64,000 bases of DNA from Escherichia phage 92CQ. The notes under the pieces were generated by a model. The model did not search any database, was not told where the DNA came from, and was given only the letters and a program-made list of their open reading frames with translations. Where the stretch lies: sequence record PV682554.1. The stretch is one strand, 5' to 3'. Of this stretch, positions 48,100-48,693 are shown in pieces. Within the stretch, counting starts at the first letter, position 1. Every line of letters begins with the position of its first letter. Position numbers and translations under genes: made by a program.

Positions 48100-48693
48100 T
48101 TAAATTTTAAATTCTTCATTGTTAAATGAATCCAGTGTACGTACTTCTGGTTCTTTGGGAATGAAAACGTCTTTTACAAAACGGAACATAGGGAAACGTT
48201 CTGCCATTTTACGGACGTGTGCTTCTTTACCTGTGTATCGGTGATTAATAGTGCAAATATTAGTCTTCAATGCAAATTCAAAATCTGGATGATATACATA
48301 GTTTTGACCATCCCAGTAACACAGGCAGATAGCTACATCAAAGTTCCATACGATTTCACTGCGTACACCTTCTTCCATGATCATAAAGTTAAACTTAAGA
48401 TCTTTATAGTATGCTTCAAATACCCATTTCAAATGTGGTAGTTCGGCATAAGTGTGTTCTGTTTGCTTAGTAAGTTGTTTCACATTACGTGCACCAACAC
48501 CCAACATCAAAAATTTCTCTACTAATACGAGTGTATTGTGGTTAGGCATACGCAAGTAAATGTCAATATCTTGCGCAGGTTTCTCTAATCGCCAATCACG
48601 TACAGCGCCGCCAGCTACAATTGCAAACGGATCTACCAGTTGGCACATACGTAATACTTCTAAAGCGCGTACTTTTTGATCTTCAATATTCAT
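48100..48693 (-). CDS. nucleotidyltransferase (Pol beta superfamily; CCA-adding / poly(A) polymerase head-like)
   Basis: 197 aa; motif VAGGAVRDW...DIDIYL matching GGxVRD...DxD of the class II tRNA nucleotidyltransferase head domain. Confidence 0.45.
   Translation of the reverse strand: MNIEDQKVRALEVLRMCQLVDPFAIVAGGAVRDWRLEKPAQDIDIYLRMPNHNTLVLVEKFLMLGVGARNVKQLTKQTEHTYAELPHLKWVFEAYYKDLKFNFMIMEEGVRSEIVWNFDVAICLCYWDGQNYVYHPDFEFALKTNICTINHRYTGKEAHVRKMAERFPMFRFVKDVFIPKEPEVRTLDSFNNEEFKI

Follow-up and report, generated by a model that had tools for sequence, protein, structure and literature searches.

The question raised by this locus is what a coliphage does with a small stand-alone nucleotidyltransferase (NTase) that is encoded within its DNA-replication module. 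The window, the whole stretch of 64,000 nucleotides from Escherichia phage 92CQ (sequence record PV682554.1), encodes the 197-amino-acid protein at positions 48100–48693 on the minus strand. A preliminary description made from the letters alone recognized in it the head-domain signature of class II enzymes of the CCA-adding or poly(A) polymerase kind, and suggested that it could repair the 3′ ends of tRNAs or modify another RNA. We find instead a short relative of Gad2, a phage protein that acts against Gabija immunity. The reading that we favor, and to which we give a little less than an even chance, is that the protein is an accessory counter-defence or host-interaction NTase of the replication module, an active enzyme that is possibly directed against Gabija-type immunity. 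The classification in this reading is near-certain, while its anti-defence part is tentative and in our judgment would more often prove wrong than right. The features of the gene are as follows.

48100–48693, minus strand: coding sequence of the 197-amino-acid stand-alone NTase, assigned from its identity to phi92 gp158, PHROG 1614 and the Pfam label PF26128 'Gad2'
48699–48703, minus strand: Shine-Dalgarno sequence AGGAG, 5 nt before the NTase ATG
48595–48612, minus strand: codons for G28-G29-A-V-R32-D33, the first half of class II motif A, assigned from family conservation
48559–48570, minus strand: codons for D42-I-D44-I, with the two carboxylates that bind metal, unchanged in all alignments
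48415–48417, minus strand: codon for E93, which lies on strand 88–96 and may be the third catalytic carboxylate, as proposed from the NTase fold
48193–48228, minus strand: codons for K156–F167 (KEAHVRKMAERF), the presumed position of the class II motif D helix (EDPLRVLRVARF), from comparison of spacing

The preliminary description was right about the open reading frame (ORF) and its GGAVRD...DIDI signature. The frame opens with ATG behind a ribosome-binding site, it encodes 197 amino acids, and its homologues and the invariant residues that they share bear it out. The window is a phi92-like coliphage whose DNA is 97–99% identical to that of Escherichia phages AV123, KKE7M, Eryne and muut, and the NTase itself is 100% identical to phi92 gp158 and to the protein of many phi92-like phages. 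Public records label it 'hypothetical protein', 'nucleotidyltransferase' or 'putative tRNA nucleotidyl transferase/poly(A) polymerase'. A word-indexed search with the NTase returned two clusters only, and an exhaustive HMMER search returned 997 representative homologues at E ≤ 1e-3, with 280 at E ≤ 1e-10, most of which are stand-alone proteins of 175–230 amino acids matched across nearly their full length. The PHROG profile phrog_1614, 'nucleotidyltransferase', is a full-length match (E 2e-34, residues 7–193), phrog_10174 matches with E 2e-26, and the BFVD database holds many phage proteins of 167–230 amino acids with the NTase fold. Within the family, G28, G29, W34, D42 and D44 are invariant, and Q6, A10, L14, R32, D33, A40, Y82 and K162 are at least 90% conserved, with R32 present in 98% of members and a basic residue, Lys or Arg, at position 162 in 99% (133 of 138 have Lys). 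Position 93 is acidic in 70% of the family and Asn in ~14%.

An AlphaFold2 model of the NTase was built from a 99-sequence alignment, with a mean predicted local distance difference test score (pLDDT) of 90.7 and a predicted template-modeling score (pTM) of 0.85, and it predicts the head-domain fold of class II CCA-adding and PolyA_pol enzymes. The preliminary description had counted best structural matches to non-tRNA NTases among the results that would speak against it. What we observe with Foldseek is that the best folds are class II tRNA NTases, since the 45 top-ranked PDB matches consist entirely of E. coli poly(A) polymerase I and of class II enzymes that add CCA, CC or A (E 3e-6 to 2e-3, template-modeling (TM) score ~0.5 normalized to the query). 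We also considered whether the protein could be a MenT/AbiEii-like toxin, a CD-NTase or an antibiotic NTase, and rejected these identities because such folds score far lower and PADLOC gives no match; MNT proteins are likewise matched neither in sequence nor as best fold.

To read the motifs we used three controls, E. coli Cca, PcnB and the bona fide CCA enzyme of Vibrio phage helene 12B3, all of which show GGxVRD, DxD at +14, RRD at +68–80, EDP(L/V)R at +40–44 and RF at +10 residues, each distance counted from the preceding motif. In the NTase, GGAVRD occupies residues 28–33 and DIDI residues 42–45, and this 14-residue spacing is the same as in all three controls. The RRD site of the controls reads W-N-F in the NTase, followed by DVAICL where the controls show (L/F)TINA, and the EDPLR-VLRVARF site reads KEAHV-RKMAERF, an equivalence that is by spacing and not by residue-level superposition. 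Across the 138 family members compared, RRD occurs in none, and a conserved [ED]DxxR was not found, with matches in 12 of the 138 at scattered positions. Where motif D has its templating Arg, the family has Ile or Val (Val in the window protein), and the acidic residue of motif D is kept in 71 of the 138. The body and tail domains that bring full enzymes to ~350–470 amino acids are absent from the NTase.

The claim of a class II head-domain signature thus stands for motif A and for the fold and falls short in the Pfam score: the match to PolyA_pol (PF01743) reaches 19.1 bits against a cut-off of 23 and covers only residues 26–81, on profile positions 3–59 of 126. An E value below 0.01 against PolyA_pol is reached by only 13 of 84 family members, and NCBIfam gives the NTase marginal CCA matches only. 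With hhalign, the family profile scores 26% against E. coli Cca and 68% against PcnB with motif A alone aligned, and a PDB profile search is likewise limited to motif A for Cca and PcnB. Motifs B–E were therefore mapped by spacing and conservation. The profile search against PolyA_pol/CCA families and other minimal NTases, which the preliminary description had proposed as a check, thus recovers motif A, whereas the score stays below threshold and no defence-type NTase is matched. Judged by the criteria of the class II family, the NTase is by its sequence not a CCA-adding enzyme, because both RRD and the EDxxR Arg are gone and a body or tail domain for binding RNA is absent, and the label 'tRNA nucleotidyltransferase' is probably a misnomer for this family.

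The closest characterized relative is Gad2. The exact window protein carries a precomputed Pfam label, PF26128 'Gad2', as an unmarked match (that is, E ≤ 1e-5), and the label is common to many family members; a literature search on PF26128 found nothing. Gad2, for Gabija anti-defence 2, is a 400-amino-acid protein from Bacillus phage SPbetaL7 in which AlphaFold predicts an NTase domain; deletion of Gad2 makes SPbetaL7 sensitive to Gabija, co-expression of a Brevibacillus laterosporus homologue blocks Gabija, and its authors suggest a mechanism unlike that of Gad1 on the grounds that Gad2 is a predicted enzyme (Gad2 preprint). The mechanism is still listed as not elucidated in a review according to which Gabija acts at the ends of phage DNA if RecBCD activity is missing (February 2026 review). 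As reference we used the verified Brevibacillus sequence from the supplement of the preprint. Aligned to it with hhalign, the family profile scores 92.7% (E 4e-7, 113 columns), with family residues 22–151 on Gad2 residues 25–141, and against a profile of 43 Gad2 sequences the short-family profile scores 95.8% (E 7e-9, 112 columns). A hidden Markov model (HMM) of the short family recovers 116 of 120 true Gad2 proteins at HMM positions 22–150; these true Gad2 homologues are 355–474 amino acids long, come from Bacillota and their phages, and are all labeled PF26128. From these profile alignments we conclude that the short NTases and Gad2 are homologous sister subfamilies and not orthologues.

Family members also depart from the typical length. 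Ten of the longer members (284–400 amino acids) were checked and have no Pfam match outside the NTase. In P0060 (400 amino acids) and P0172 (385 amino acids) the NTase is C-terminal and follows a tandem-duplicated module of ~70–100 amino acids (MKFxVxSPxHSxQIQ…YFKxHPNEEYV), which has no Pfam match and may be a targeting domain. We considered P0060 as an SPbeta-type Gad2 and rejected this, as its N-terminal module is different and duplicated. At the other extreme, gp223 of Vibrio phage ICP1 (positions 4959–5378 of locus L002) is a homologue of only ~137 amino acids that corresponds approximately to the N-terminal 126 family residues, and it may be truncated or split because several ICP1 records annotate two ORFs there. 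A ribose-phosphate pyrophosphokinase gene lies 2 kb from this homologue in ICP1.

The surroundings of the gene were examined in 80 IMG/VR loci with flanks of up to 10 kb, of which 78 had a callable NTase ORF; the 78 were grouped into 44 lineages at <60% identity, which share ancestry and are not phylogenetically independent. In this sample the family travels with DNA polymerase and primase/helicase genes and not with tRNA genes. Of the 78 loci, 67 have a DNA polymerase or primase/helicase inside the 10-kb flanks, as do 36 of the 44 lineages, and the neighbors that recur most are family A DNA polymerase, in 34 lineages, and Toprim-DnaB primase/helicase, in 32. A 328-amino-acid protein with no Pfam match, FEN-like by eye, recurs in 17 lineages, and less frequent neighbors are a PolB-like protein (10), a single-strand DNA-binding protein (SSB)-like protein without Pfam match (9), DNA ligase (8) and ThyX (7). 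In absolute distances, 21 of the 44 lineages have PolA no more than 1 kb away, and 28 have it within 3 kb. On contigs of at least 60 kb, replication linkage is seen in 18 of 25 lineages against 4.9 expected at random placement, and none of 200,000 random-placement simulations reached 18 lineages, a figure to be read with the shared ancestry of the lineages in mind. In the T7-like Bordetella phage BB8 the gene has primase/helicase on one side and DNA polymerase on the other, and it adjoins primase/helicase and PolB in Curvibacter phage P26059A. Published genomes hold similar arrangements: a 'tRNA-NTase' lies between helicase and polymerase in 37 of 46 Pectobacterium Autographiviridae, with its role left open, and is found in only 60 of more than 500 other Autographiviridae (Evseev et al. 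2020). The BASEL authors note that Gordonclarkvirinae encode an NTase together with their replication genes, and speculate on a part for it in DNA modification; the same paper places Bas60–62 in Justusliebigvirus.

Any tRNA gene within 10 kb was found at only 8 of the 80 loci, and two phages with complete genomes, Vibrio phage 402E50-1 (46.9 kb) and Bordetella phage BB8 (41.6 kb), have the homologue and no tRNA genes. One exception is a 148-kb viral contig (L018) with a family member at 10001–10519, where 17 tRNA genes start ~3 kb downstream (13155 onwards); at this locus no polymerase or primase was found within 10 kb of the family member. At another locus (L007) the NTase is flanked by a TnpB/IS605 OrfB-like gene, with an RtcB RNA ligase gene 3 kb downstream (6906–7949 and 11339–12565). 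Neither RtcB nor the T7 gp5.9-like gene of a third locus (L008), each sighted once, recurs among the 2118 neighboring ORFs.

In the window itself the features around the gene, with the tRNA cluster for comparison, are as follows.

51906–53678, minus strand: Toprim-DnaB primase/helicase, in the same module as the NTase
48831–51410, minus strand: family A DNA polymerase, immediately upstream of the NTase
48067–48096, minus strand: near-consensus sigma-70-like promoter, TTGACA-18-TATTAT with TG extension, ahead of the gene for the 132-amino-acid protein
47658–48056, minus strand: 132-amino-acid protein of unknown function, PHROG 16560, downstream of the NTase and syntenic in phAPEC8
46709–47641, minus strand: SSB-like protein, which carries the annotation single-strand DNA-binding protein in phage Eryne
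4097–6873, plus strand: 16 tRNA genes, all CCA-encoding, with no physical or statistical link to the NTase

The NTase gene is flanked by the DNA polymerase gene and, past the gene for the 132-amino-acid protein, by the SSB-like gene, and the module runs in the order primase/helicase, family A DNA polymerase, NTase, 132-amino-acid protein, SSB-like protein, DNA methyltransferase. We found no terminator-like site between DNA polymerase and NTase, so the two are probably co-transcribed, with the NTase on the DNA polymerase transcript. Neither a terminator nor a strong promoter of its own was found for the NTase gene, and promoter-like matches around it are no more frequent than in shuffled sequence. 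The sigma-70-like promoter at 48067–48096 is the best site in 8.5 kb and lies inside the 43-nt gap after the NTase stop codon.

Of the syntenic genes in the module the NTase diverges fastest. Its identity between this phage and phAPEC8 is 37%, while its neighbors are 79% (DNA polymerase), 71% (primase/helicase), 60% (SSB-like protein) and 56% (132-amino-acid neighbor) identical. A divergence of this size would fit an arms-race gene or a xenologous replacement.

Other genes of the module differ between phages as well. The N6/N4 DNA methyltransferase gene at 45917–46648 (minus strand) has neither orthology nor synteny with that of phAPEC8 (2953–3747 of locus L093), in which a different methyltransferase gene lies between primase/helicase and DNA polymerase and a 131-amino-acid gene is replaced too. 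Directly upstream of the primase/helicase in the window are three glycosyltransferase-like genes (53960–57514, minus strand), the target of which may be DNA or a glycan; the orthologue of one of them at locus L010 has a weak match to PF20691 'TAGT'.

The mechanism that we propose would run as follows. The NTase would be a degenerate class II head of the CCA-adding/poly(A)-polymerase type together with the first neck helices, still catalytically competent, in which motif A for binding metal and triphosphate is kept and the residues that select sugar and base (RRD and the Arg of EDxxR) are lost. Expressed with the DNA-replication genes, it would transfer a nucleotide to a target other than tRNA and thereby shield the replicating DNA of the phage from a Gabija-like defence that targets DNA, in the way of its distant relative Gad2. 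The target could be a replication-derived nucleic-acid 3′ end, a defence protein or a small molecule.

Several observations weigh against this proposal. The tie to Gad2 is distant, since BLASTP of the window protein against Brevibacillus Gad2 gives 24% identity over 117 residues (E 1e-5) and a narrow Gad2 HMM gives the window protein 16.8 bits only. Gad2 is ~400 amino acids long, and its C-terminal region of ~250 residues is missing from the 197-amino-acid NTase; its motif reads GG(T/A)ITS where the short family has GGA(P/V)RDW, and conservation of function is not required by the homology. Gad2 is encoded in a dedicated anti-Gabija locus of SPbeta-type temperate Bacillota phages, whereas the NTase belongs to the replication module of a lytic coliphage. 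The nearest solved folds of the NTase all work on RNA 3′ ends, a PADLOC scan of the NTase gave no defence-related match, the replication synteny could mean shared ancestry or co-timing and not common function, and the short members are known from sequences and models alone.

Of the alternatives, one that we consider unlikely is that the NTase serves replication or DNA modification as such, independently of defence, and is needed to replicate or mature the genome, either by extending DNA 3′ ends as a template-independent terminal transferase or by carrying out one step of a covalent DNA modification. The lineage-wide co-location with PolA, PolB, primase/helicase, the 328-amino-acid FEN-like-by-eye protein, DNA ligase and ThyX is what this explanation would lead one to expect, and the glycosyltransferase-like genes share the module. 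The RRD motif of class II enzymes reads the ribose 2′-OH, and its loss would allow the use of deoxynucleoside triphosphates. The BASEL suggestion for the Gordonclarkvirinae NTase is similar. The distribution is patchy, however, as seen in the Autographiviridae counts above and in the absence of the gene from T7, and the gene diverges much faster than core replication genes; both features are typical of accessory genes and not of core functions. The reduction of the ICP1 copy to ~137 amino acids argues in the same direction.

We hold it similarly unlikely that the NTase tails RNA in the manner of a poly(A) polymerase, in which case untemplated tails on host or phage RNAs, such as mRNAs, antisense or regulatory RNAs, replication primers or R-loop transcripts, would alter their stability or use. 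There is a precedent in E. coli PcnB, which controls ColE1 replication through the tailing of RNA I. The higher hhalign score with PcnB than with Cca points this way, the loss of base-templating residues fits a relaxed or different choice of nucleotide, and a role on RNA primers or transcripts would account for the linkage to primase/helicase and polymerase. Yet PcnB retains RRD and EDPVR, both of which the NTase family lacks, the NTase has no RNA-binding C-terminal region, and none of its homologues is known to tail RNA. The homology to Gad2 moreover suggests a DNA-targeting defence and not RNA turnover.

The function suggested in the preliminary description, repair of tRNA 3′ ends, would make the NTase a minimal CCA-, CC- or A-adding enzyme that restores ends trimmed or blocked by host nucleases or toxins, and we now think it quite improbable. 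It is true that the closest solved folds are class II tRNA nucleotidyltransferases, that motif A and its spacing are canonical, and that such genes are routinely annotated as tRNA-NTase in phage genome papers. The protein is, as had been stated, less than half the length of a cellular CCA enzyme (197 amino acids against 412 in E. coli Cca). N-terminal-half forms of true CCA enzymes of ~200 amino acids exist, however, in jumbo and KVP40-like phages, and small size alone therefore does not exclude CCA activity. Distant family members also lie near the 17-tRNA cluster and near RtcB, 3 kb away in each case, at the two loci described above.

Against tRNA repair stand the complete loss of RRD across the 138 members, the replacement of the EDxxR Arg by Ile or Val, and the lack of a tRNA-binding body or tail. 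The scarcity of tRNA genes around the family, the two tRNA-free genomes that carry the homologue and the failure of RtcB to recur also argue against it, as does Gad2 being the closest characterized relative. The preliminary description had placed the gene alongside a large tRNA set. The window does hold 16 tRNA genes, but the cluster is 41 kb away and on the other strand, and the stretch that separates it from the NTase holds the terminase, portal and tail genes. That most of these phage tRNAs encode their CCA proved to be an understatement, as all 16 do. CCA is encoded in the tRNA genes of E. coli too, and a host Cca is present. True phage CCA enzymes, moreover, form a different family that is detectable by sequence: a tblastn search with E. 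coli Cca yields 428 phage records, which are 34–56% identical to it with E values down to 1e-92, apart from three near-identical bacterial-type exceptions at 90–95%. Two Vibrio phage loci, compared to see whether a true CCA enzyme and a short NTase share a genome, turned out to be unrelated. The earlier interpretation as a whole is therefore upheld for the NTase core and not for the function in tRNA repair; its other suggestion, that another RNA is modified, may still hold, and so may a role connected with defence.

The tRNA region of the window has features of its own. A perfect direct duplication of 178 nt (4619–4796 and 4924–5101, plus strand; spacing 305 nt) carries a tRNA-Ser(GCT) in each copy. 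ARAGORN reports an unusually long tRNA-Asn of 85 nt at 5344–5428 (plus strand), a length atypical for the isoacceptor, and a second tRNA-Met of 79 nt, also of atypical length, with its anticodon at position 37, at 6573–6651 (plus strand). Just upstream of the cluster lie a PRPP-synthetase-like gene (651–1544, plus strand) and a NAPRTase/NAMPT-like gene (1616–3349, plus strand), a pair for nicotinamide adenine dinucleotide (NAD) salvage of the kind proposed to act against NAD-depleting defences.

A bolder form of the counter-defence reading, for which we likewise see only a slim chance, is that the short GGA(P/V)RDW NTases are widespread counter-defence enzymes of replication modules that add untemplated nucleotides to the 3′ ends of replicating or linear phage DNA or of its RNA primers. 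Such addition would hide or block DNA ends from Gabija and from other nucleases that sense ends or monitor RecBCD. If this were true, nucleotide addition at 3′ ends would also account for the unexplained mechanism of Gad2.

That the NTase is a catalytically dead scaffold or binder, which sequesters a nucleotide or binds a host protein, is very improbable: many anti-defence proteins are sponges or binders, the candidate carboxylate E93 is Asn in some members and the specificity motifs are lost, but in hundreds of divergent members four residues (G28, G29, D42 and D44) do not vary and two more (R32 and K162) hardly do, a pattern typical of an active site under selection, and the authors of the Gad2 work predict an enzyme with a mechanism unlike that of Gad1.

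Returning to the counter-defence or host-interaction NTase that we favor, its relation to Gad2 means that the Gad2 catalytic core is not confined to ~400-amino-acid proteins of Bacillota prophages. A half-length sister family, with ~1000 representatives at 50% identity, is found where lytic phages of Enterobacteria, Vibrio, Bordetella and many uncultured hosts encode their replication modules. Gad2 belongs to the small number of enzymatic anti-defence proteins for which the mechanism is still unknown, and the link between its core and the replication-module NTases could make that mechanism experimentally accessible. The small single-domain NTases of tractable coliphages (phi92 and BASEL Bas60–62) would be convenient for finding what this clade transfers and onto what, which bears on the understanding of Gabija-type immunity and on choosing or engineering therapeutic phages.

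It remains to set the NTase beside the systems already known. It resembles the class II enzymes of the CCA-adding and poly(A) polymerase kinds in that these are its best structural matches and the motif B and motif D helices lie at equal distances, and it differs from them in lacking RRD, the EDxxR Arg and the body/tail or HD domain, and in its length of 197 against 412–465 amino acids. Bona fide phage CCA enzymes (those of Vibrio phage helene 12B3, Raoultella phage Ro1 and KVP40-like phages) are also phage class II NTases, some of them ~200 amino acids long, but they are 34–56% identical to E. coli Cca and keep RRD and EDPLR, neither of which is true of the window protein. A stand-alone 'CCA-adding enzyme head domain' protein of 191 amino acids, NP_344798.1 of Streptococcus pneumoniae (PDB 2la3), is similar in size and is cellular; the identity is 9%, and no sequence-level relation between it and the NTase was detected. 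Alike in size class and position are the short 'tRNA-NTase' or 'PolyA_pol head domain' proteins of Autographiviridae and others (PHROG 1614/10174), which have 167–230 amino acids, a place among replication genes and the same predicted fold (BFVD TM score 0.55–0.8 normalized to the query). The Pectobacterium and Dickeya examples are only 17–21% identical to the window protein in structural alignments and may for this reason be a further sister subfamily; their published CCA annotation was made by homology modeling alone (Evseev et al. 2020).

The NTase and its family are thus already in the databases and annotated, and the NTase is not the discovery of a new kind of system but a divergent, shorter member of a group in which one distant relative, Gad2, has been characterized genetically. 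With Gad2 it shares AGG-x10-D-x-D-x-Y/F, 'VQ(I/L)' on the next strand, F-D/x-x-(S/T)-(I/V)-C, an aromatic-rich hairpin and (H/x)xDF, all of which class II CCA enzymes lack, and both proteins are phage-encoded and have no RRD.

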